Counted from the first letter of the stretch, positions 39,501 to 57,682 are shown. The stretch: 64,000 bases of DNA from Phallusia mammillata (GCA_965637545.1 OZ281500.1:11966001-12030000); one strand, 5' to 3'. A program made the numbers and translations. The notes: generated from the letters alone by a model not told the origin.

Positions 39501-42500
39501 ACTTCTGTCTAAAATACTAAAAATGTTTTTGAAATATGTTTTTTTGCAATGCCTAAAGATCGTAATCTTGTGACAATTCTTTTTATCTTTTGTTGTAGAA
39601 GCAGATTTGAGCAATGGATTTTCAGAAAGTGAGGAAAAAACTTTGCAAAATAAAATTAAGCATCTGTTTGTCAATGTGGCGGTAAGTTCTTCGATTTTAG
39701 TCAAATGCCTTATGTTTTCTAGACTTGTTCTTTGCATTCTTAATTTCAAAACAACAAGATTGTACACACAAAAATGTCGGTACACTTTGCTTTGGGTGTC
39801 AATCTATTTAGCAGGCCCAGTTATGTCTATAATGCAGAAATGAGGATAAAAATTACTGCTCCAAAGAGGTGGTGCTGCCAACATTAGAATTTTCATCACA
39901 TTTTTTACCACTTACTTTAGGCCAAGTTATATTACAGATAAGATTGATTTGATAAAGGTGCACATAATCGAATCGTTTCACAAAGTTTCTATGATGGCAG
40001 TTTCTTGTGTTCACATAATGCACCAAATGCATGAAACCAAGGTCACAGTGTTGCCGTTGTTTTTGTATTTTTGCTGTCTCCTCTTACAGTAAAAACGTAA
40101 GAGTCATGGTAACAGATGGCAGAGACTGTAAGCAACTGATTACCACTGTACGCCAGGCCCATTGAAGGTGTAACACCCATCAGGGTTGATCCCAGTTATG
40201 AATTTATGTTTATCTCAACTGATTATATAATTTAAGCTGTAATGTGACATTTATTGGTTTGTTGCAGGAAAACCTGTTGGCGTTCAACGACGATTGCAGC
40301 GATCACGTGCAAGATTGGGAACCACAGGCTGATGACGACATGCCCGTGTTTTTGGCTTCTACGAATCTATCACGTGATTACGTTGAATCTCATGAAGTAT
40401 TGTCGAAATATTGCAAGTACTCACACTCAGACAATCTTCAGGACAAAGTGGTGAGCAAAGCACTGTTGTGGGTTTCATAAAAACTGAAGCGCGCTTTACG
40501 CTGTTTGCAGCAAAACGTTGCGTGTGACCCACTTACGTTCAAGACACCCATTGTAACACCTGCATAACCTGTTTGTCGTTGCATATGCCTCTGGCTGTAA
40601 TTTGGTAAAATGCCTTTTAAATCACGAAAAATGAAAATTAAACAAAAAAGTTATCAAAAGGCCGAGAATGTAAGCCAACTGACTGACAAATGAAATGAAA
40701 AAATGACATGCATGTGTTTACATTTTAAATTATGATGCCAAGTTTAGCGTTTGAAACGTTGTGCTGATCGCTGGCTTAATAAAAGGAAAACCATGCTTGA
40801 AACAGGTTTTTGGATAGAAAATTGTGGCAAGTTGCTTCGCATAACTGCATGTTTCGTTTCCTGTCATTGCACTTCTACATGCAGTTAAATTGTAAACAAC
40901 ATTGTTTTTGTAGGTCGGGTTTAAAGTGTGCAAAAAGTGCATGGATGCAATCAGTTTTGTCAGCGAACGAACTGATGAGGACCAACTTTCCAAATCGGCA
41001 AACGCAGTTGATCTTCTGAACCACGTGATAACAATGCTGTACGTTTGCGCGAGCGAGTGTGATGAAACCGACCATGATGATGATGACGTCGACAGAAGTG
41101 ACGTAGAAAATTGCGTTGCTGACATCAACAAAAATGATGCCTCTGAATTTGTGCAAAAACAAACTGAAAAACTGGACGGAAAATTTGTGACAGTGCAAAT
41201 CGCTGCGGACACAGATGAATATGATAATGAACATGTTGTATCAGACTTACTATCATCCGTTGCTCAACAGCCAATTGAGATTGCGGTCAACGGCGGGGCA
41301 TGTGCTGAATTTGTATCTAACGGATTGCAGCACAAAAATCTTGTACACAAGGAACTCGACTTTCATACCAATGTCATGGTTTGTCCATCTGGCATCGAGA
41401 ATGGTGAAATGGATGTAGTTAATGGTACGGACAGCAAAACCATTTCGAAAAGCTCCCCGACCACTTACAAACAGATTCTTCTTCGCACCCATAAAGCACT
41501 TAAGGCTCTGCAAACAGACAACACAATAATGCCCAACGGTGGAAGTTTTCGTTGGGTGAAAAGTGTCAATGTAACTAAAGTGAAGCCTGACGACCTCAAC
41601 ACTAAAAGTCCCTCACCTATTGCAACAAACGGCGTTGTTGAGGATAAACTGCCAAACCATGTACCATCATCAAAAGAGAAGTTAAATGGACTTTCTGACA
41701 TTCCTGGTGTTAGCCCATTTGAAGACAACGTGCCAAGAGCGGCAAAGTCGAAATGCAAAGAAATAATCGACCTCTTTGTTAAAACTAACGAGCTGGCTTC
41801 AGAAGCTGCATTGTCATGTAGTCCTAGCAAGCAGGGAAAGTCCAGAACCCCTAGCAAGAAAAAATCAGACCGTAGCAAGTCTGGTTCATCGATGAAAAGA
41901 ATTGTTTGGGGTTACCTTACCTCACCCACTGAGTTTGGAAGTGCTAGGTCGCCCCCACCGCCAAGAAATAAGGGAAGAAGATCCAGATCCACCAAGTAAG
42001 TACTTCTAAAAACATTATTCTATTTCTTACTGGGAAAGACGTGCTGCTGTAAATTTGTAGTTTTAAGATAAAACTTCCCTTGTAACTTTCAGCCTTTTAA
42101 AGTATTGCTGTTTTCTTAGACTGAATTCACCAAGGAAGAAAGCTATTCCTATTCCGTACGAAACCCACTATCTATGCATCACCCGCACCATAGCCAAGAA
42201 GGGTTGGAAAGCTTACTGGTACCGTAAATGTCGATGTGCAAAATCAAGGAGATCTAGCAACCTGACTGAAACAGAAACAAGTCCTACATGTAGTTATTCT
42301 GGATCGCCAGTCCACACACCAGAAGAAATTTCTGTAAATGACTCGGCAACAGAATCAAACGACCCATTGGTAGACTTTGAACACGAGCCATCTGATGCCA
42401 AGTGTTCAAGCCCAAATGGTATTGAGGTTGTTATCACAAGCAATACAACAGCCGCTATGCACGACGAGCAGCCGGAATGTAGCGAAGTCAAATTCGGTAC

Positions 42501-45500
42501 AGACATCACCCCTTTAAATATAAATGAAGGTTTGGCAACCAGTGAACAACATAAGAAACTGAAACTTCCAATTGTGAAAACCGAATCAGGGTTATCAGAT
42601 GAAATTCCACAAATGGGCAGCGAAGTCAGAGTGTCCCCTGTGAACACGTTTTCCGAGAATTTTGTTCCACGTGTTGCACGAGATGAAAAAGAGGTTGCAA
42701 GTCGAAGGGAGAAGCTTAAAGATGTGTTAAGTGCCCTAAAGAAAATCCGCAACTTGCGAAACCAAGAAACCTGTGATTTACTATTAAAGCCAGTCGTTTT
42801 TGCGCAATCTCATGAACCAGTGGACAAACAGCCTAGCTCTCTCGACCTTGTGAGTGTAAACCGAGTGGTTATTGCCAGTTGCGTCGATTCTAACCTCGTC
42901 AATTTGGGTGATATCTTTACCAAGCAGTCCGCGCATGCCGCGTCGCTTCTGGAAGGAGCAGGACTGAGTGCTTTCGCTCGTTCCCGCAACGCCAGGTCTG
43001 AAGGCGACCCTTACTTTGCGTCGGTATGGGATTATGGTAAACTGCCGAAATTTTTCGAGGAAGTGAGGGTGGTCAAACCGTTAAAGAGGTTGAAGCTGCT
43101 AAAATCAGGTTACCGCGCTGCCAAACCCAATGTTTTGGGAATGCATCGTTTAAAATCGTTGAAGAGGGCAATGCTTCACAAAAAGCCAAAACAGACTCAG
43201 ATCCAGCGTATCAAGCCATTACGCATTGAAATAGAACCAGTGGCTAACAAGGACTTTAACCAAAAAATGGAACCTGATTTGTGGCAGGTTCCGAAGCAAA
43301 GCGTATCGGCCGTTGTTGGAGGTCTCGAGTATCTGTGGGGTGAGATTTTACAAAATCCTCTACCAAAAGTGCCAATGATTACCAGCACAAATGAGTCAAA
43401 GCCTTACGGAGCTATAGTCATGTGTAACAAGCAAGTTGAGCACGCGTTGGGGGCGCTATGCAAAGACGACGACATCTTTACTTTTTCCAGCAAACGTTTA
43501 ACTACTGGCAAAGGACAGAAAAACGTTTTGCTGATCAGTCGCAAGTATGTACCGGAACCTAGACCGCGAAGACGACGTTACCGTAAGGATTCCATAAATG
43601 GCGAATGCCCCTGTATGCAAATGAAGCCGTTTACATTCGAAGCAGAGATCGACACGCCGCGAGCTGAAAGCCCTAATAAAATTTTGTTGAAACTTAAAAA
43701 AGTACAAAACGATGAATCAATGTTATACAAAACGGACAATGAAAACGAAGATACTGCCACAGATGCCAATCGGCCAAAGCCAATTGTGGAGGAAGGTGGT
43801 GCAAGGAAACTGCAAGTCGAGGTGCAAAATACTGAGCAAATATCTGCAGATTTGGGAGAACTTAAAAATCCCGATGTGGAATCGCAGGATGATAATCCAT
43901 CGACGTCCACTTTCCTGTCCACAAAACCAAAACACCTCGAAGATCAGTTGCAATCTACAACAGATAACGCTATAACCGAAGAAAACAACAGCGATAGCAA
44001 CGTTATCTCTGCGGCTGAACAGATCGACTTGTCAACACAAACCACCTCACAGCTGGGTTTAGAAAGTTTTTCAAAAGTAGCACATGGGGTGCAATCATCA
44101 GATGAATGGGTTACACCGCCCAGTTCACCACTTTATCTGGGCGGCAGCAAATCGCGGATAGCCACTCCGAGTACCTTTTTACGCAAAACAGGTTTGGATA
44201 CCAGCACTCCACACGCAAACGCACCAGACAAGCAAGCTGGTAAATTGGGATCGCCTATAAGCAACGAAATCAGTTCTGAACAAACTGAAGGTGGTTTGCA
44301 CAACGACGAGCTGCACCAGTTTTTGTCCAAATTGAATGAGAACAGTCTGGATCTTTTGGAGAGCGTGTTGATGTGGTGCGAGCCAGACCAGCTTCCTCCA
44401 TTGCAACTCTTCATGTCCTTGCATGACGTGCACAATGATACCACAGAAGAGGACAGAGCTCGAATGATGACGTCAATAAGCCCTTCATGCCACTCTCGTT
44501 GCGAAAATTTGCTATCCTTTGGCTCACCGGAAGTAATAAGAGGCATCACTCACTCCAAAGGCTCACCGAAACCGGCTGCAGCTGCTGCTTCCATGTCGCC
44601 TAACGAAAGTGGTGCTGATTTTAGAGGCAGTCCAGTCTCTCCGGGTTGCATGGGAAATACCGACAACAGCAATAACCTGGGACGCTTGACTGTGCAGCAC
44701 AACGGTTCGGCGTTACTCAAACCATGCAATGTAGTCCTTGAGCCTATTACCTCGCTATGCAAAGATATGGAAAACGGAGTAGGATCGACAAAGTCGACAG
44801 CCACCTCATATCACCGCAGGCTTTATGAAAAGATACTGAAGAATCATGCCCTGAATGGCGCTTACTGGAAAAACACTTCTTCTTTGCCGGGCGTACAAGA
44901 CACAGCAAGGTTATTGCGTGATCGGGTTAAGCGTAAGCGATCAAGTAGTGATGAAAAAATGGAAGAGGAATCTAGTGAGGAAAGCAGTGAAGATTCAGAT
45001 GATGAATCCTCTGTACAAGGTACGGTTAAAAGCAAAAGTCATACTCTCTGCTTAAAATTACCTAACTAGAAACGTTACAGCTGTATTTGTTTAAAAACAG
45101 TCCAACCATGTGCTCGAATTACTATTTGCAGGTATACCCTTTCTTTTTGTAAAATGATAGCAAAAACTTATTATGGAAGGGGACACATATTGATTTTACT
45201 CAAATTGTTTTTTTTTTTTCTTTTTCTTCCCAAAGTTTGTCCGACTCGTTTTTCCATCAAATGTTTGATGGATGTGGCTGAAACTTATACGGATGGTAGA
45301 TAAAGTTATGTAGATGTACGTCCCACTTTGTTTGTCCAAATAACCCTAGTATTTACCCCGCTACCCACTAAAATGGGTGAGTTTGTAAACAGTGTCAGAA
45401 TTAATACTCATAATTGAAACTTAAAGCTGGAATCACCCAGTCCGTTGCTTGGTGGATGAAGACTAAAACTCCTTATAGCAATAGATGTAAGTTCAGAAAA

Positions 45501-48494
45501 ACCACTTAGTTGTTCACCCTTTGGTTTTAAAGATATATTCTATTTCGCTAATACAGCATCGTCAGTATCTTATTCAAATAGAATATATCTTTAAAACCAA
45601 AGGGTGAACGACTAAGTGGTTTTTCTGAACTTACATCCAGTGTCAGAATTGGCTGAAATTTGGATAGCTTATAGAGTATGCCATTTATAGATGTCAATTG
45701 GTGTGTTCAACCCTGTAGCCCCAACATTTACCCCACAAGCCCCCAAAGTGTAAAACATATTTGTATGTTACTGGGCACCACAAACGAAAGATTTCTGTTG
45801 CTCAATAGTGTTACAAGGGCAAGCAGTTGTATGTTACTCGTTTGTGACTTTGTGGATTGGTGAACATTTTTGTGCCATGGCAGTTAGGGGGTTGTTAATG
45901 CCATGGCAGTTAGGGCAGCCCTATGATGTAAGAAACATTAACGGTTGTTGCTCAAAACACCTCTAGTGGTCGAAATTTTAAACATTGGCGGATTGGGCTG
46001 AAATTTTGCAGTACTATTGATTAAGTCATTGAGGTTTTATATTTTTTAGTTTGTGTGTCGGACCCCATTAGTTACCCTACTAGCCCCCTAAAATGGGTCA
46101 GTTTTTTAAACAGTGTCGGGATTGGATAAAATTTGGGTAGTATGTGGACTATGCTATTTGTAGGTTTCAATTGATGTGTTTTACCTTTTAGCCCCAACAT
46201 TTACTCAACTAGCCCCCTAAAATAAATGAACTTTTAAAAAACGTCCTAATTATGTGAAATTCGCAAAGTTTATTAAACATACTAAGTGCTCAAATGTTAT
46301 GTTTTGCCCTGTAGCACCACAACTTAACCAAGTAATCTCTAAAATGTGTAACCCTTTTCACAATGTTCGAATTGAATGAAAATTGGACAGCTTGTAGAAT
46401 TTGCTATTCATTTTTTGTTTTATCCCATTATGCCACTACTTACTCCTTCGTTTCTTTGAAAAAGAACGTTAAATAGGACATACTTCAAACAATACCTGGG
46501 GTGAATCTAAATTTATATAGTTTGTACTCTACATAGTATTAATATTTAAGCCCAGTCCCGATCACTGCGTTTTACGTTACAACACTAAAATTTCACATGG
46601 TTATCTCTTGAATGCATTATCTACAACGTTGCATGTGTGGGGACCCATGAGTTTCTGCTTGCAGAAACAACTAAGGTTATAAAAGACAGTGGATGGTATG
46701 GGACCCAATATAAAATAAGCATAGAAAATATATCAATGTTTTAAAATAGGTTATAGTGTACATGCAAGGGCAATATGTGCTAAACCACCCTTCTAGTTTC
46801 ATTTTTAACTTAGTCTGAGTCTATACGTTATCCGCATATATATTAGCGATTGTACAGCCTAAAGACTTTTTAAACTTCAATCTCAGTTCCTTCGGGTCCC
46901 AAACGCAAGAGGCTAGGCAATGTTGAATACACGCGTGTCAACAACCAATCCATTAATGAAGTGGTAAATCAACTGTGGAAGAATCAGTCCGGAACCGAAC
47001 CTACCCATACGAAGAACCAAGATCACACCCAGGTAAGAATAAAAAATAGAATTAACGTAATAAACTTCTGTACCGTGTTGATTGGCATACTTATATATTT
47101 CAGGGTGGAGTCACAGAGCAATATAAGTTTTTCCACTTGCTCATGTCTCAACATTTTGATCTAACCCAAGTTATGTCTTGGATGCTAAACACTACAGCAA
47201 CTAATCCAAGACCCTTGCTGTCTCCATACCTGGTCGCTAAAAGAAACCGAATTCGTGTTGCCTTGGAAAAATCACGGTAAGACCTATTAAATTTCGCACA
47301 TTTCAGGGTTTATACAATTTAACATTTTCTGGTTGTAGAACAAAGTCACGGTCACGAAGAGCAAGCAGCGTTGTTTCGACTACGTCATCTGTGACGTCAT
47401 GTAACGATGACTTGAAAGTAGGAAGAAAGAGGAGTTTCGGTCAGGCCCTTCGAAAAAAGAGTAAAGGCAAGTTGTTTAATATTTTTCTTCCGTACAGAAT
47501 GATTTGCATTTGCTGTGGCCTGTGGATAACACTCAAAATAGCCTGTCTCAACTTTGACAAAACTTGTCCCGTTAAAAGTTATAATTTGAACTACCTTTCT
47601 TTTTGTCACCTTGTAATTGTTTTAGTTGTACACATTGTGTTATTTTGACTTCTTTGCATGTTAGGTTTCTGAGCTTTGCCTACACAAAAAAACACCAATG
47701 CAAAGCCGTTAAGGGCATGTTGTAACATGTATTTATTTGTTTGCTGTGCAGATTTTTTGACTCCTTCCAAAACAAATCGTTGCAAGTCAATAACTGACGA
47801 GCAATTCGAAGCATTACGAAAGCAGCTTTTCTATTTGCGGCATCCCGACTACAAGGGGAAGTTGCACACAAACGGTAACCAAGCGGTGGTCACCATCACT
47901 CCCACAGAGCTTGTCGTAAGATCCACATCTCTCCAACTTCACCACATAAATGAAGATGAGGCTCGAAAATCTGCTACACCATTCCTAAACAAACGTGTCA
48001 TAATGAACGGAAACTCTTCAAATGACATCGTTGTCCCGAGCAAACGACGTCGCATGTTTGCCCCCTGCCGCACTCCCCCGCATGACAACCAACCTGATGA
48101 CGTCACACCTTTCTCTCAGTCGCTTGTTGAGAGTGAAAGTTTGGATGACGATGCTTCTGAATGGCATGAATCGCCACAGCCGATGAATTCTCCTCCACTC
48201 GTCCAAAGGAGAAGAGGGAGAGGCAGAGGAAGAGGACGACCCCGCAGGATCCTCTCATCGAGTGCTCCACATCTTCAAAGAGGAAAGCTCTTTTCATCTT
48301 CTCGTGGAAGAGGACGGGGTTCACGGGGTCGTGGTGCGTCCCGAATGGCGAAGTTGGTTGTAGGTCACCATTCTGAACAGTCTGAACATGAACGCGGTCC
48401 CAGGTTGAACTCGAGATTTGCCAACAAACATTCAACAGAAGGATCGTTTCTGCAACGCATTCTTGAAAGTGGCAACTTTGAAAAATATGTGTAG
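36538..48494 (+). CDS. Uncharacterised ~1940-aa probable nuclear protein with C-terminal AT-hook/RG tract; exons approx. 36538-36631, 37480-37607, 39194-39290, 39351-39422, 39599-39681, 40268-40450, 40914-41995, 42120-45019, 46887-47032, 47104-47276, 47339-47466, 47752-48494
   Basis: Long open exons (1082, 2900 and 743 nt) are joined by phase-compatible splice sites. The product is S/P/K/R-rich and low-complexity, with several basic NLS-like clusters and RRRGRGRGRGRPRR. No family was recognised. Confidence 0.75.
45403..45637 (-). mobile_element. Penelope-like retroelement remnant (inverted pseudo-LTR-like) with 13-bp flanking direct repeat
   Basis: CAGTGTCAGAATT occurs at 45390-45402 and 45638-45650 and interrupts the host repeat unit. 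The insert has 62-bp inverted arms (45484-45545 / 45576-45637) and a hammerhead core on the minus strand. Confidence 0.6.
45530..45571 (-). ncRNA. Minimal type I hammerhead ribozyme motif
   Basis: The minus strand reads AAGAUA-CUGACGA-U-GCU-GUAUU-AGC-GAAA-UAGAA-UA-UAUCUU: stem I of 6 bp, stem II of 3 bp, a 2-bp stem III and an AUA cleavage triplet. Confidence 0.6.
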
Positions 48495-49371: not shown

Positions 49372-49838
49372 TTGGCTACTATGCATAAAACTGTAAATCT
49401 TTCGACAACTGCTAATGACTAAAAATGTGCATATGATGCGGACTTATATTTCTTCATAACCTCGGCATTCATACATAGGAGCAAAAATATATAAGCTACA
49501 CGTTTCACCTGATTTTTGTACTTTAATTAAATAACATCACAAATTGGTTTGTACACATCAAATAGAATCAGAACAATATCTTTAAATTGAAAGTAACTAA
49601 AAATATATATATTTATTCAAGCTAAGAAATGACATGCATTTTTGTTCGCACCGCTAACCATTACCCAAAGCATCGATTTGTAAAACCTGCAAAGCAAATA
49701 AAATGCATTCATCTGAAAACAAATTGATGCATAGTAACACAGTGTGAAATGTACAGTGAGAAACAATGGTGCACAATTCCAGATTATAAAATGATATACG
49801 TGGAAATGCAGTGATAAAAACCTGCAGCCTGATATTAA

Positions 49839-52800
49839 TTACTCTTCGGTCAACACCTCTTCAATCATACTCTCAACCTGTGGGCAACGAATTATGGTTA
49901 GATAGCCATCATCACTAAATAAAAGTTTTGTCAATATCGTTGCTGATAAGTAGAATTCCATAGCTTGATTTAAATACCTTTAAGTAGCCTATGTGTTTAA
50001 ATAGAATAGTCACCCAAACATAGAACGTGGCAGCTCCAGCGCTGGCATCACGAATAACCTCCAAATCTGCGTCTCCCATCACACTTCGAGCTTTAAGGGC
50101 GTCCGAAGGAGAAATGTCATTGATGTTGCATTGTGAGATTTTACGTTTCAAACCTTCGCGGCCTGTTTTCCCCAGCAAACTTTGGATGTTGCTCCATTTC
50201 TTAAGTTAATAATTCGTTGAAAATCTTTTGACTGTCATACTCTTTATTCAGGCACAAATATGTTCGCAACAGCAAAAACGTTCCGGTTTAGCATATTTTA
50301 TGGTATTTGTTTAGAATTAAACGGAATCGGATTTTGCAGTCATTTTATGCCGTTTCAAAAATTTAAGCAAAATCTATCATTGAAAACGACATTTTAGACA
50401 AATGATATTTTTTGTTTAAGTCCCAAAGTTTTGCAAATTAAGAAATATTAACGAACCTTCGTTTGTTTCGCGGGTATTCCGAGCAACAAATAGGTGGCGA
50501 TCATGACATTGTGAACTGCAGGGATAGGATTTTGATAGCTTCTAATTTCAGCAATTGTGCTTTGCTGTAATTCCATGACCTGTAACAAAGCAAAAATCAT
50601 GACATCCAGAAGAAACAGGGTCCAAGAACGGGTTAAGATAAATGTACAAAACACGTGGACATGGATTTCGTATCGCTACACAACTTATTTTCTGTTACTG
50701 AAAAAATAGTAATAAAACCGTAGGACCTCGCTTCTGAGAACTTCAATTCTCTTCAATCTCTCCAGAAGTTCGTTAGCATGGGCAAACTCTTGAGCCAGTT
50801 CATCTTCAGAATGATGAAATCCCATGTTGCGCACTTTTTGTAAAGCTTCCTCCAAATCAGTGATTGTGCGGTGGTGAGATGCTTCCTTCAAAGCTGAATA
50901 AATGATACTTGTCAAAAACTCATACACCAATCAACAAATAACAATATACTGTGAAGTCAAACTAAATTTATCTTACATGCCGCAAGACAGCCATTCACCA
51001 TGACCGATTTTAGACTTGATAGTGCGAAGATCGGAATCAATTTTTTATTCAATAAGTTACTTGTTCCTCCACGAGAGAAAAATTAACCCTAAATGGAATT
51101 CAAAGAATTAAGTTCCGCCAAGTCACACCTTCTCGACTTTGCAACATCTGAAGAAGACGCTCAGCTTTTTCTAAAATATCGTTGGAGGTTTGGTGTTTAG
51201 ATTTGGCGCTTTTGTACTCATTGATCGCAGACTCCAGAGAGCTTTGGTCGTCACCGTCAATTGCATCCTCCAAAATGAATCGGAGCCGTTCTTTTTCTTC
51301 CATTGCTGCGTTAAAACGTTTCTATACACTGGCAACGTATACAGATAAACTAAAACACAGACATTTACCTTTTGCCTCCTTTTCTGCTCGCCTGGCCTCT
51401 CTCCTGGCTTTTTTCTTTTCCTCCTTCTCACGTCGCTTAGCAGCCGCCGCTGACAACCGTTTTAGTTTTTCTTCTTCCTCCAATCTTCTCAATTCGTCTT
51501 CTTTCTCCTTCCGTTCTGCCTCTGCAGCTTCCTGAAAGTATGCACAAAAAATAAACACAAGCAGACTGCTGCAAAAGGTTATTTTGTTCAGCGGTAAGTT
51601 GTCAAAAAGGTGTTTAATAAAGGCCATATATTACTTAACGCTAGAGTACTAAGAAAAACTGGGACAACTCCATACCTCTGCACGACGTTGTTCGTCTTCG
51701 CTGTTTTGTGATAAACGCCTTTCATCTGAACAAATACCAAAGTTTGTGCAACCGAAATATACCACTCTTTTTACGGGAGATTGTGCTATTTACAAGATCT
51801 TGGACATTAATTTTCGTGAGTATAAAGTTACATGTGTAATTTTCTTCCTTTTGGACTACTAATTGATTGTAGGTTATCCGATTAAATATTTATACATTTA
51901 AAGAGCCTTTAGAGCTTTGCTTTAGGTAGCTTAAAATATACTTGAATATGCACCTTGGGAAACAGATTCATGTAGAAGTGGCGAAGCAGCACGAGATTCC
52001 TGTACACAAAACATTTAATGTAAATAAAAAAAGCATCGGGATTCAAACCAAAGAATAAACCTTAACAATGCCTGCCAGCTTACCGTTGGATTTGATTCTG
52101 CATCTTCGTTGTCGCGGCTCGATGGATTGTCATCTACGTAAATACAAATGTATTTTTTTTTAATACATATGTATACCAAAAAATAAGAATATTAGGACAA
52201 ACAATATTTTAACTTTTTCAAAAAATTTTTGGCGGTTTGTGTGCTTCTCATATTGAGGCTGTGCATGAACTCAGTAAGTCAGATATAAAACTTATCGCAA
52301 TAAACAACACATAAAGTAAATGTGCTTTTTTCAACTTACCTGGTATAGCGGTTTCAAACATAACTGAAGAAGCAGCTTCGCCGTCCTATACAAACAAATG
52401 CGTTAGTCTTAAAAAATAGGCATTTTTTGACGTTTTTTTATTGTTGTCAGCGATAATTTAAATTTTGACACAATATCAACATTATTTCGATTTGGCCAAC
52501 AAAAGCCTAACACTAAAATTTGTTGTCAGTAAGAACTGCCAGCTTACTTTTGCACTTCCCTCTTCGTATTCGTCTTTGAGTGACTGACGTTCGTCTGCAA
52601 ACATATATACTGTATGGACTATACATGCATATAGGCTACTAACTACAGTGTATTTGTATCAGACTTTACACCAGTGGTCGGCAACCGCCGGTCCGCCGCC
52701 CGGTACCGGTCTGCGAGGAGTTCGTTACCGGGCCGTATAAATTTCCAGGTTAAATGCTATAAAACATTTTGCCCATGTATCCCGGGCATGATAAACTAAT

Positions 52801-55800
52801 TTAAGCGTTTTTATAGCTATATATTTATAGTTTTTTGAAGACCGGTCCGCGATAAAATTTTAGTTTCAAAAACGGTCCGCAATGCAAAAAGGTTGCCGAC
52901 CCCTGCTTTACACGACACAAATTCGAGCAAATGAACTTAAAATAAAAAGAGAGCCCCCAAAACAGATTTTCTTTGGAGTCCAATTTCATGTAAGCATAGT
53001 AAACACTATTCGCCAAAACCGAAACAAAGTTTATGTGTGACCAGCACCTTGTGTATCATTTATTCCTTCTTGTTTAAAGTCTGGGGATTCATTTCTAAAA
53101 TCCTGCATAAAATAAATTAAGTAAAACATAGCACAGATAACCCGTGGCAAATAAAATGAACGTATATTACAGTTTCGTCATGAGAAATATCCCTGAAAAC
53201 TTCAGGAATTCCTTTGTCAGTATCTTGGGTTTCCGGTTCTACATTTGACAGAGGTTCTTGTTTTAGCTAAAGATTAAATATTCAAATAATTTAGTGCCTT
53301 GATCAGTATGTGCATCTACACTAGTAATGAAAATTTTATTGGAAAAAAGATACGGCGATACTCGATTATTACGATTAAACTGTCATAGTCACCTGCACGA
53401 TTGGCGGCAGTTTGACATCATGCTTTGTAGAATCCAACAAGTCACTGCTCGAGTCGGATGTCTATTGCGACAAAAAAGATTAACCGAAGGTACAAACAAC
53501 GTAACGGAAAGTTCCATTATGCAATTGGTTATGTTTACGTTCATTCCAGTTACCAAAAAATCATTATACCTCAACAGTTGGTGGCGTTGACAAATCTTGC
53601 ATGAGCGAATCGCCAGTCACATTGCGAGCCGAGTGTGTTGTCTACTCAGCCAAAAGACATTACATCAAAAAATTCTTGTAAAATATTTCGATTTTTCAGT
53701 ATAAGACTATTATAAAATACCTGTATTGGTGGCAAAGAACCTGATGTGTGTGCGGTCTGCAATAAAACCAACAAAAATCGCTTCATGTATTTACACGGAA
53801 AATGCACATTTTTTCACAAACTTTTTTGGAAAATACCTGTATAGGTGGCAATGAACTGCCCGATGCGTGTGCGGCCTGCATTAAAACCCAATCGTTACAC
53901 AGTGGACAATAATTTTAATAAAACATTTCTATAGGAAGTACCTGTATAGGGGGCAATGAAGCGGCGGCCTGTATCAAAATTTACAAAAAGTACGTTATGT
54001 AATGATACATGCGCTATTTAACTTTGTTACCTGTAGGCCTATTGGTGGCAGCGTAACCTCCCTTTTAATGTGGCCAACTTGGCCCGTTGCTTGCGCTGCC
54101 TGCATGCAACAACATAAATGTCATAACTTTAAACAGGAAGAAAAATCCAAATAACAAGAGCTATTTTTACAATTTTAAGTTAAACTACCTGTATTGGTGG
54201 CAATGTTATTTCCCGCTTTAGATTGCCAGATGGGCTGTTGGATGGGTTGGATGTCTGACCCTGAAACAATTACCAACGAAAATGACGTATTGTGTTTAAA
54301 TCGACATATTTATGTGTCATTTTAATTAAATCAAACCAATTAAGATTACTTACCGGGATTAGCGGTAGTGTTGACCCTCGCTGAATAAAACCAGGATTTT
54401 GGTGTGTCTGCAACAAACAAAGCAACGCTAAACATTTAAAAGTTATTGTAAAAAATACTTACATGTATCAGTGGTAATGTTGACTCCCGTTGGATAAAAC
54501 CAGGATTTTGGTGTATCTACATTACAACAACAAACTATCGGAAATATTCGCTCTTAAATATTTATTTACTATCAACCAACAAATAAGAATACGAGTCTTC
54601 GTTCGTGCAATTATATCCACTTAAACGTCATAAAACCCATTTAAACTTAAACATCTTTGCCTCTTAATTTATTTGTAGCAATGAATCATTTAAGAAATTG
54701 CAACAGCTTTCTGTGAGTGTTTTCACCCACCAAAAATAAATAAATAAAGAGAGAAATAAAGAAGCAGTAAAACGAAAAGCGCACGTAAAATTGGAAGATG
54801 GCAGTATACCATGCCAGCCGATTGACCTGACAACCCCAAGGTGGAGGATCTGTGCAGCAAAAGTGCATGATGCTTAGGTTTTAAACAATGTGGACAATAG
54901 GGCAAATTTGTAGCTTTTTTACCACATTTTTGCAAACTATTTAGCCCAGGGGTGGGGAACCTACTTAGTACAGCGGGCCGCATGAATTCTACTACATTTT
55001 CGGGCGGGCCAAATATTTATTTATTTTCAAATTCCGTGTAAAAATACCCAAAGTTTTATATTTCACCAGTGGTTTTATATTTCATCGCTCCAGATTTGAT
55101 TTTTTCTTTCCTGCTACATGTTTGCAACAAACTAGGCATACAGGTTTATCACTTATTTCGACTAAAAAATAAGAGTTGGAACACCCTAGCTCTATTACGG
55201 ATCTGTTTATTTTTTCAATGATATGTTTGAAATAACAATATAAGGATCGCACGTTAATAGCTCTAAAAAAATAACACCACATGACAAATGATTTGTTACT
55301 GCAAGAAAAGGCAATCGAGTGACCGTTACGTCACAAATATAGCAAGTGGTTCAAAGTTTGGCGTCATAATGTGGATTTGGGAGATATTGAATATAAATTA
55401 CCAATAATGTTGAAGTAATTTTTACAAAATATTTGTACATAAACATTTTATTGCTTTTTTATGCTATGTTGTATACTTTAACAAAAATCTGATGCGGGCC
55501 ACATTAAAAAGGCATGCGGGCCGCAGGTTCCCCACCCCTGATTTAGCCCAAGCCATTCTAGTCTGGCAACCCTGGCATTGCCTTGGTAACACCATCATTG
55601 CTTATTGTTCTACATTGTATCCCTAATGTACAACTTTACACGCTACGTTTCAAGAGCTGTAAGTGTCTATAAATATAAACAAACCACATGCAAGAATTAA
55701 AGTAAAATCTTATGTCGGAAAGGAAAACGGTTTTGATTAGCTGTTACTCATAACCGCATAACGTCGCATATTAAAGATTTTGGTCTAAATAACTTTGAAG

Positions 55801-57682
55801 CAAGTACTCCTCAAGCAGAAAAAAAGATAATTATTATCTTTGCTTTTTACCTCGGAAGTAGTTGATAGCGCGTTTGCAGCTGTATGTTGCACTTGTTGAC
55901 CGAAACCGATCGGTTGTAGTTGGTACATCTATACACCATACGTTACAAACATTTATTGCATAAGCGTGTTTTTATAATTTACCTGCATGGGAACAATACG
56001 CTGTTGTCCTGTGTCACCACCTAAGAAAAAATAAATGTAAATAAAAAAGTGTCAATTTGCTTGTCTTAAACAAGGTTTCAGTGACCTGATCCAATATACA
56101 GTTGCTGGGGGTTCATTCTGGTTGTTGGCACAGGATTAACAGTCGTCTTTGAAAAAAAAAACAAATTTACATTCACTTAACGTTTAACATAAGCGTATAG
56201 TGGATGGCATGAAGGATTTAGAGTTTAGACTGCATTAACATAACATGAAAGTAAACCCAAAATTTTATGGCAAAAGCTTACCGATACACCTCCGGAAGCC
56301 ACTCTACAGCCGTAACCGGACTGGATAGCTGCCACTATAACCGAAGACAATGCAAGCAGACACATTGTAAGGTAATACATAAATGCGAAGGCTGCTGGAA
56401 TAATTGGGTCAAGTTCCTGAAATTAAACGCGTTTTATCTTGCTGCCCAGGATTGACTGATCCACAAAGCAGTGGAACTTTTTGTTAATGGTTTTTAACCT
56501 TGGCAGGCGAAATCAATCAATCAATCAATTTAATTTATTTGCTTCAGCCAACAGTGCTCAAACTGAGTATATCGTTTGTAAGCTGAGTGTTTCACTACTA
56601 GTAGCATATTTTCAAAATAAAATATTATTTTGATTTGATAAAGCAGCAACGAAATTATACCGCCGAGAATACTCAAGGAAATCCACTGCGCAATGTGGAT
56701 TAGTTTTTCCCACCAGCCTGATATGGGCTCATCAAATGCCGCTTTGCTCAGTGTAGTACTACTAGCTAAAGAGTTATATAACCCACAACCTTGTGAGTAC
56801 AAATCAGTTTCCATAAACACTGGACCACATCCGAGGCCTTACTTCAGCAGTGACGTTTTTGCTCAATCAGTATAATCAGTAACGGCAGTAACGCTTTTTT
56901 ATTCAAATATATTGATGACAACAATTACAGGTTACATCTCCAGAATCAAGCACGATTGCATTCGCTATAAGACCGTTGCATAATAAACTAATTAGGGTAT
57001 AGTATACATAACATTTTGTTACATATTTTGTATTTTAGTCAACCCTGGTTTGGAATTGTTTGTTATGTAAAATAACCTACTGCCCTATACTCACCCAACT
57101 TTGGTAATTCTGACAGATGTACGAAAACGGGTTGTTGAGGCAGTCATAGGAATTCGCAACAATTGTTTGCGCGACTTCAATTCCAAGCATTGCCGAAGCA
57201 GCAAGAAATGCAAGAATGGAAGCAATTAACTGAGTCACAATCTGCAAAAACAGATTTTTACAAAAATTTGATAGAAGTTGGCAATTTGTTTCAACATACA
57301 TAGCATTTGGAAGATTTCGTTGATAAAATCACACCAAGAACTCCTGCAATCAAACTCTAAAAACACAAAGTTATATTGTTCTAAAAAGCATTTTTCTTAA
57401 AATTACTATAGAAAACTCACGCAAGATCCACCCCATATACCAGAAGATATGAAGGTTAATGTTTGAGTTAAATAATCCAAATTATAGTCATATTGACGTT
57501 TACTAAACATTACCAAATACGGAATTGACATCATTATGCACACAGAACCAAGTAAAATTTGAAAGATCTAAAAAAAAACATTTTTATTCAATACATTTTG
57601 TGCAGTAAGAGTAAAACTTTTTACGTACCCCAAGAATCTTCATCTGACCGAAATGCCATGTAAATTTTCTATACTGGTTCAT
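49839..57682 (-). CDS. MS4A/CD20-like 4-TM protein with long cytoplasmic tail ending in a dynein microtubule-binding-domain-like module, ~770 aa, 28 coding exons (57629-57682, 57421-57567, 57300-57356, 57095-57241, 56282-56416, 56086-56146, 55983-56020, 55851-55928, 54463-54516, 54354-54407, 54189-54260, 54031-54099, 53942-53968, 53837-53875, 53721-53756, 53171-53266, 53048-53102, 52548-52594, 52340-52385, 52084-52133, 51954-51999, 51676-51725, 51369-51531, 51129-51305, 50727-50893, 50457-50579, 50014-50199, 49839-49877)
   Basis: MS4A hallmarks are MKILG|IFQILLG, GIWGGSC|SLIAGVLGV and a TM4 ending IQSGYGC. All junctions are GT-AG with matching phases, giving one 2313-nt ORF. The C-terminus is QSTIAEIRSYQNPIPAVHNVMIATYLLLG...KWSNIQSLLG...IRDASAGAATFYVWV. 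Confidence 0.72.
52672..52905. mobile_element. hAT (Charlie-type) MITE
   Basis: TIRs CAGTGGTCGGCAACC / GGTTGCCGACCCCTG with a perfect 8-bp TSD CTTTACAC. Confidence 0.92.
54947..55540 (-). mobile_element. Internally deleted hAT-Charlie/SPIN-type transposon retaining a transposase zinc-finger fragment
   Basis: Perfect TIRs CAGGGGTGGGGAACCT / AGGTTCCCCACCCCTG and an 8-bp TSD ATTTAGCC. The minus-strand YFLVEISDKPVCLVCCKHVAGKKKSNLER resembles the N-terminal BED-type finger of Charlie/GTF2IRD2-like transposases. Confidence 0.9.
56511..56880 (-). mobile_element. Probable non-LTR retroelement/SINE-like 3' end with degenerate hammerhead-like fold
   Basis: The minus strand ends AATAAATTAAATT(GATT)4, typical of LINE/SINE tails; hairpins lie at 56680-56735. 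The far boundary is uncertain. Confidence 0.4.

Follow-up and report, generated by a model that had tools for sequence, protein, structure and literature searches.

A tandem array of [ST]LP[PL]I motif exons in a predicted, likely chimeric MS4A-like gene of Phallusia mammillata

Ascidians show expansions of the MS4A family, whose members have been proposed as chemoreceptors of palp cells (bioRxiv 10.1101/2022.08.15.492342), and mammalian MS4As are present in the cilia of necklace neurons (PMC7776563). For phosphorylated docking motifs, published accounts give RxxS/TxP as the 14-3-3 mode I motif (PMC5607241) and describe HDAC4 pS350-LPNI as switching from ANKRA2 to 14-3-3 (PMC12066720, review); residue R3382 of dynein is credited with a tubulin contact (PMC4230729). 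Here we describe a predicted gene that joins an MS4A-like membrane domain, a tandem array of motif exons and a dynein MTBD-like end, located in a window (the whole 64-kb stretch of DNA that was analysed) corresponding to C7:11966001-12030000 of a 240-Mb genome. Our best explanation, which we hold tentatively and at somewhat less than even probability, is that tandem-duplicate exons repeat [ST]LP[PL]I in what is predicted to be the cytoplasmic tail of an MS4A-like protein, itself likely a chimera, and that these repeats would serve as phospho-switched docking sites upstream of a predicted MTBD. The cytoplasmic placement of this tail presumes an MS4A topology. Duplication of exons and the making of chimeric genes are both well known, so that taken by itself the array is unremarkable; the host architecture, not the exon array, carries the significance, and the host gene, unseen in the preliminary description of this locus, is its more unusual part. 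In literature searches, which fell short on subscription papers, neither an LPPI motif class nor an MS4A-MTBD fusion turned up.

The motif exon array and its candidate ligands

The preliminary description had placed seven tandem exons at 53721..54516, and all seven were recovered on the minus strand, each preceded by AG and followed by GT, each phase 0-0, with the peptides it had quoted and with lengths (54, 54, 72, 69, 27, 39 and 36 nt) matching our predicted exons E9-E15. E9 (54463..54516, 54 nt) carries I-x-R-x-x-T-LPLI and is followed by its near-duplicate E10 (54354..54407, 54 nt), by E11 (54189..54260, 72 nt; L-K-R-x-x-T-LPPI), by E12 (54031..54099, 69 nt; I-K-R-x-x-T-LPPI), and by three S-LPPI exons, namely E13 (53942..53968, 27 nt; lacking the upstream Arg), E14 (53837..53875, 39 nt) and E15 (53721..53756, 36 nt). 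Seven is thus the right number of exons for that interval and too low for the array, which runs on to a total of eight motif copies in nine consecutive exons: E16 (53570..53641, minus strand, 72 nt, phase 0-0) has a degenerate motif, STPPT, and E17 (53393..53461, minus strand, 69 nt, phase 0-0) the eighth copy, KLPPI. The reported LP(P/L)I at the exon 3′ ends is present in all seven exons and extends to a fuller consensus, [ST]LP[PL]I, again in 7/7. The term microexon fits poorly; the usual size cut-offs are 27 nt or 51 nt, and only one and three of the seven exons, respectively, fall within them.

The clustering of the motif is pronounced. Among 11 LP[PL]I matches in six frames of the 64-kb window, 8 lie inside one 1.1-kb minus-strand cluster, and base shuffles of 53300-54600 (n=2000) gave a mean of 0.05 matches and a maximum of 2. 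Across the whole genome, LPPIQ plus a donor has 10 exact matches, four of them at the array (the reversed control gave 1), and the other six are isolated, with 0/6 lying within an array; at the DNA level the array stretch is single-copy in the genome. A lone SSLPPIQ plus donor at C3:31407948 closes a long open frame and is possibly a true exon of an unrelated gene.

An origin by exon duplication, as first proposed, is borne out by DNA likeness among the array exons (E9/E10, z 11.7; E14/E15, z 9.1; E16/E17, z 6.0; E11/E12, z 5.5), the z values coming from the best 45 of 300 exon pairs compared. An MS4A paralogue on contig C5 has, as its exon 9, a single phase-0 exon that ends in QPIQ plus a donor and precedes the stop exon; it resembles E11 (z 4.4; 0/200 shuffles) and E12 (z 3.7), both within the best 45 of 300 pairs, and, since 300 pairs were compared, the weight of this kinship comes from the exon's expected position. 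The array likely grew from one such tail exon of an MS4A parent. Selection on the motif is supported by a pS of 0.71 against a pN of 0.05 over the LP[PL]I codons (28 pairs of 8 copies), a low pN that is in part circular by construction. All 8 copies keep L, P and I, with synonymous variation only, and the near-saturation of synonymous sites shows both the old age of the copies and the retention of these three residues. S/T stands at -1 in 7/8 copies despite a codon change from Thr (ACN) to Ser (TCN), E17 having Lys. The family at large does not share the array, as any copy of LP[PL]I occurs in only 4 of 162 homologues of at least 300 aa.

In the mechanism we propose, the unphosphorylated LPxI core would bind a hydrophobic-pocket adaptor until a basophilic kinase phosphorylates the preceding S/T, whereupon sites would become 14-3-3 sites, as at HDAC4 Ser350; four R-x-x-T-x-P sites, 18-24 residues apart, would be among those converted, and the C-terminal MTBD-like domain would tether the membrane protein to microtubules. 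Given the fusion, we regard this combined function as a working proposal whose chance of being right falls a little short of one half. The preliminary description had pointed to R-x-x-T/S before several copies, and R-x-x-T indeed precedes 4/8; the fit of RxxS/TxP in these 4/8 copies and the HDAC4 pS350 precedent together favour tandem phospho-switch docking with modest confidence, while the lack of Arg at -3 in the remaining 4/8 counts against the 14-3-3 reading. The hydrophobic -5/+4 pattern of AMPK-family kinases fits 4/8 copies, the same four that have R-x-x-T-x-P. Other ligand classes were compared: the ANKRA2/RFXANK ligand PxLPxI/L was rejected, its first Pro being found in 0/8 copies, as was PP2A-B56 LxxIxE, with Glu two residues after Ile in 0/8 array copies; EB-binding SxIP, written as [ST]-x-[IL]-P, fits 3/8.

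The strongest competitor to phospho-switched docking, though an unlikely one, holds that an adaptor binds the LP[PL]I core constitutively and regardless of phosphorylation, that the core is repeated for avidity in the same fused gene, and that R-x-x-T is incidental. The invariance of L, P and I in every copy, when Arg is present in only half of them and Lys replaces S/T in E17, speaks for such a ligand, and in the amphioxus CLCA-like proteins P0053/P0165 the stretch from the membrane span to the MTBD-like module holds two LPPI copies (residues 960, 1010) with no S/T before them. The retention of S/T at -1 through the ACN/TCN codon change speaks against it, and our searches of the literature found no named LPPI motif among the matches listed.

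Host gene model, parent genes and reading frame

Chaining canonical exons gave a 30-exon, 817-aa model running from 57682 to 49839 on the minus strand, with no internal stop over 2454 nt and GT-AG borders at all 29 introns. The model opens with an MS4A/CD20-like four-helix domain and a proximal tail (E6-8); the motif array (E9-17) comes next, followed by an acidic linker (E18-24), and after a charged helix (E25) and helical repeats the chain closes with a dynein-MTBD-like end. The predicted membrane domain spans E1-5 (56282..57682; exons 57682-57629, 57567-57421, 57356-57300, 57241-57095 and 56416-56282), as suggested by hydropathy, a C5 paralogue and an amphioxus profile, and has four hydropathy peaks near residues 11-39, 61-79, 86-114 and 141-169. 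E6-8 (55851..56146; 56146-56086, 56020-55983 and 55928-55851; phases 0-1, 1-0 and 0-0) encode a tail common to the C5 MS4A paralogue, with alignable peptide and with E8 resembling C5 exon 8 (z 6.7). Beyond the array, the acidic phase 0-0 exon E18 (53171..53266) lies at the inferred chimera junction, and E19-E24 (51676..53102) form a linker in which a two-exon unit (phases 0-1, 1-0) occurs three times, as E19/21/23 and E20/22/24; by DNA similarity it comes from the EF-hand/MTBD-like parent described below (E23/C5 exon, z 6.3; E19/E23, 5.2; E20/E24, 4.8; E21/E23, 4.2; E22/C5 exon, 4.0). E25-E27 (50727..51531) would encode the charged helix and then two helical repeats that run into a stalk-like helix, as read from the helices of a homologue model, and E28-E30 (49839..50579; 50579-50457, 50199-50014 and 49877-49839) the predicted MTBD-like domain and the stop, as indicated by a family profile and the homologue model; a likely polyadenylation signal for the full-length model is at 49612..49617. 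All of these features are on the minus strand.

The array exons, like the rest of the model, are predicted from sequence: at this gene none of the 8 contig sets compared, out of 12 presumed to be RNA, covers any exon, their cover being transposon-like repeats within introns, which gives the prediction no weight either way. Nearly all of this cover falls on short repeats, likely MITEs, at window 52665-52910 (intron 19) and about 54946-55551 (intron 8). The protein is absent from the matches of three protein-database searches, whereas that of its C5 parent is present; the one with exon 4 gave no match. On the plus strand, long open frames of one or more neighbouring genes at 40914-41996, 42067-45066 and 47673-48491 (361, 1000 and 273 aa) have no Pfam match at E 0.01.

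Assignment of the first half to MS4A/CD20 is indirect. Pfam scans of single window exons gave no match to CD20 (PF04103) or another relevant family, and the PF04103 profile run against the genome gave two sub-threshold matches, both elsewhere. A profile of amphioxus CD20-like N-termini, whose source proteins themselves score below threshold with PF04103, matched the window's N-terminal half at E 0.0017, above 900 shuffles; it matched the second C5 paralogue at E 9.6e-7 and the first at E 0.12, below three shuffles. ESM Atlas searches with exon 2 or amphioxus P0116 gave no usable match.

Both halves of the model have their relatives on contig C5, which holds an EF-hand/MTBD-like gene (minus strand) and two MS4A-like genes (plus strand) arranged head-to-head, with starts 37 kb apart. 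The sole paralogue match of the N-terminal half and the best paralogue of the C-terminal half both lie there; from a tblastx comparison only exon-level matches were used. E1-8 are 49% identical to the first C5 MS4A gene (E1-5, 50%), with the same exon phases and a dN/dS of 0.40, and E23-30 are 68% identical to the C5 EF-hand/MTBD-like gene, again with the same phases, at a dN/dS of 0.09; dS is above 1 and near saturation in both halves and differs between them (1.07 vs 2.17). The exons of the C5 EF-hand gene match the Phallusia mammillata protein P0173 almost exactly, which checks the exon calls of the homologous half. Because the two halves match two separate C5 genes, the host gene is likely a lineage-specific chimera of an MS4A-like and an EF-hand/MTBD-like parent. 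By our estimate, a pair of random loci would fall less than 50 kb apart in about 4 in 10,000 cases, and the close linkage on C5, improbable by chance, makes one regional duplication followed by rearrangement the simplest origin. In this scenario the C5 region, with its head-to-head genes, would have been duplicated, after which inversion and deletion would have brought MS4A tail exons and linker exons of the EF-hand gene together in phase 0, the MS4A stop exon and the EF-hand exons being lost; tandem exon duplication would have followed on either side of the junction. As E19-E24 derive from the EF-hand parent and the array from the MS4A parent, the junction should lie within the 290-nt stretch that separates E17 from E19. 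EF-hand exons were found neither in the window nor in the next 10 kb. A repeat at window 45176-46807 is also present on C5, both within the EF-hand parent and in the interval separating the two MS4A-like genes; a part in the rearrangement is conceivable, but the repeat is probably widespread. The search for an orthologue of the fused gene in another ascidian returned none, and of the 24 loci found in a metagenome scan, those among the matches listed are EF-hand-type or too short.

A single fused reading frame across both halves is, in our judgement, probable. Exon phases agree across the inferred junction, and the EF-derived part has, from E18 on, no in-frame Met for 74 codons and four out-of-frame ATGs; this frame is open, as it was in only 45/3000 shuffles, a test biased by the exon chain having been picked partly for openness. 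We think it rather improbable that the locus instead holds two genes in an operon, or yields a dominant short isoform, the MS4A domain and array ending by read-through of the E17 donor and a truncated, trans-spliced MTBD-like gene following. Read-through there does reach a stop after 5 codons, with an AATAAA nearby (53335..53340, minus strand) as a weak candidate for the 3′ end of such an isoform or operon, but read-through of any donor from E8 to E24 hits a stop within 30 codons, the signal is 1 of 13 AATAAA on the strand in 9 kb, and the E17 donor matches consensus at 7/9 positions. The C5 parents are separate genes, and the lack of space between the halves is compatible with two genes, given that Ciona operons are mostly without intercistronic DNA (PMC1488885). 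A downstream gene would, however, carry a leader of 222 nt with three introns that is open in frame and contains the four out-of-frame ATGs, which favours the single fused frame.

Regulated skipping that tunes motif number, raised in the preliminary description, appears quite unlikely as the main role of these exons, although some alternative splicing is possible. All nine array exons are phase 0-0, so that any subset can indeed be skipped in frame, as had been claimed; yet 17/28 internal exons of the model share this phase, which is therefore the gene's default and not special to the array, and a duplicated exon needs such symmetry to persist in any case; the array donors are strong (7-8/9 consensus matches vs 4-7/9 for exons 25-29), and the introns inside the array are 55-108 nt long. 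Least probable is a decayed or non-expressed duplicate with neutral repeats, for although the protein is missing from the database matches and the window branch is longer than the parent's (0.31 vs 0.045), the 2454 nt retain neither stop nor frameshift and the splice sites are intact after a dS above 1, with dN/dS values below 1 in both halves as given above and only synonymous variation at L, P and I of the motif.

The MTBD-like end and recurrent membrane pairings

A profile of 74 homologues run against the PDB matched dynein heavy chains, with a best E of 1e-6 (DNAH6). The predicted model of homologue P0009, which is 53% identical to the window module, has a pLDDT of 94.3 and superposes on the dynein stalk/MTBD of 5ayh with Z 17.1 and an rmsd of 1.8 over 123 aligned residues; Foldseek with the same model ranked dyneins first with probability 1.0 but with E above 0.001. 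By way of this homologue, the window's C-terminal domain is predicted to adopt an MTBD-like fold. A PDB sequence search with exon 29 gave 0 matches, and matches of P0173 to ribosome-recycling-factor entries were discarded as spurious. In helix 1 the EIRS motif is conserved, with E in 74/74 rows and R/K in 74/74. The basic position of dynein helix 6, which we equate with R3382 in dynein numbering, aligns with Asp in 68/74 rows, Arg standing one position earlier; given this Asp, microtubule binding by the domain is a prediction that is not assured.

The module ends many invertebrate proteins (P0001-P0284), whose N-termini include EF-hand, KY/transglutaminase-like with or without CARD, CLCA/VWA plus a membrane span, EGF repeats plus a membrane span, and CD20-like types; their automatic names (trichohyalin-like, hillarin-like) make no mention of it. 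Four distant MTBD-like genes occur in the same genome (C4:9964038, C8:3524001, C6:18252186 and C8:3998720; 31-38% identical over exon 29), none with an LP[PL]I array nearby, and the one at C6:18252186 has a full-length match to P0138. The amphioxus EF-hand/MTBD-like model P0194 has RVT_1 in mid-protein, which likely reflects a retroelement absorbed by the prediction. A like fold was seen at Z 7.8-10.2 in PDB 9ya2_L, 9fqr_Xl, 7jrj_I and 9e5c_2e (Toxoplasma intraconoidal microtubule and axonemal structures), which are possible non-motor MTBD-like precedents.

Annotated amphioxus proteins also join CD20-like N-termini to the module: P0116, P0164, P0277 (two species) and P0030/P0158, with Pfam CD20 E-values of 1.7e-5 (P0116), 8.7e-6 (P0164), 1.4e-4 (P0277) and 0.008 (P0030), all below the 27.9-bit cut-off. 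The predicted model of P0116, built from 5 sequences, has a pLDDT of 51.8. In a module tree of 36 rows and 227 columns (35 rows picked from 284 proteins on the basis of architecture and taxon), the window module was sister to P0173 (100/97) within a tunicate EF-hand clade (100/97). Forcing it to group with the CD20-fused rows of amphioxus, which had been defined as a group ahead of any view of the tree, was rejected (p-AU 1.65e-44); a 62-column tree did not place the fragments P0007, P0008 and P0010. From this rejection it follows that a real ascidian fusion would be independent of the amphioxus pairing, and the two MS4A-like plus MTBD-like pairings likely arose separately.

The same pairing in amphioxus, with another origin, suggests convergent recruitment. 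A speculative generalization, to which we assign a low probability, is that a motor-less dynein MTBD, common among marine invertebrates, has been repeatedly recruited as a membrane-microtubule tether (on MS4A-like proteins in ascidian and amphioxus independently, and on CLCA-like and EGF single-pass proteins), the ascidian array of phospho-switch sites controlling the anchoring of a putative chemoreceptor, for example in sensory cilia. If true, membrane proteins bearing a dynein MTBD by itself would link membrane and microtubule directly and offer a natural test of what the MTBD does without its motor. As ascidian MS4As have been proposed as palp chemoreceptors, localisation of the window protein is testable by electroporation. 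Furthermore, both parents are still identifiable, so that the birth of a new domain architecture may be readable exon by exon.

Comparison with known systems

Relative to the MS4A/CD20-like family (PF04103), the window protein shares four hydrophobic helices, a G..W.G-type signature, clustered C5 paralogues and lineage-specific duplication; it differs in that its single exons lack a direct Pfam match and in its predicted tail of about 630 residues with array and MTBD-like domain, the tails of the C5 paralogues being about 100 and 55. Its C-terminal 330 residues are 63% identical, with the same exon phases, to P0173, one of the invertebrate 'trichohyalin-like' proteins that combine EF-hand, charged helix and MTBD-like end (P0173-P0176, P0041), whereas in the window gene the EF-hand N-terminus is replaced by the MS4A-like domain and array, and the linker doublet is triplicated. 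The amphioxus CD20-like plus MTBD-like proteins (XP_066272931.1, XP_066296533.1, CAH1253644.1) present CD20-like helices, a disordered linker, helical repeats and an MTBD-like end in the same order; their module does not share a clade with the window's, they have no LP[PL]I array, and they are known from automatic gene models.

With the HDAC4 Ser350 ANKRA2/14-3-3 switch (PMC12066720, PMC5607241), 7/8 window copies share the [ST]-L-P-x-I core; the window copies lack the first Pro (8/8) and form a tandem array on a membrane-protein tail in place of one site. Finally, the likeness to the dynein heavy chain stalk/MTBD (PF12777; PDB 5ayh, 3err, 8i3j) lies in the P0009 fold and the retained helix-1 EIRS motif. 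The 817-aa model is not a dynein heavy chain: it has neither the AAA+ motor ring nor the long coiled-coil stalk, and its homologues have no AAA Pfam matches; short helical repeats precede the domain, and Asp occupies the helix-6 Arg position.
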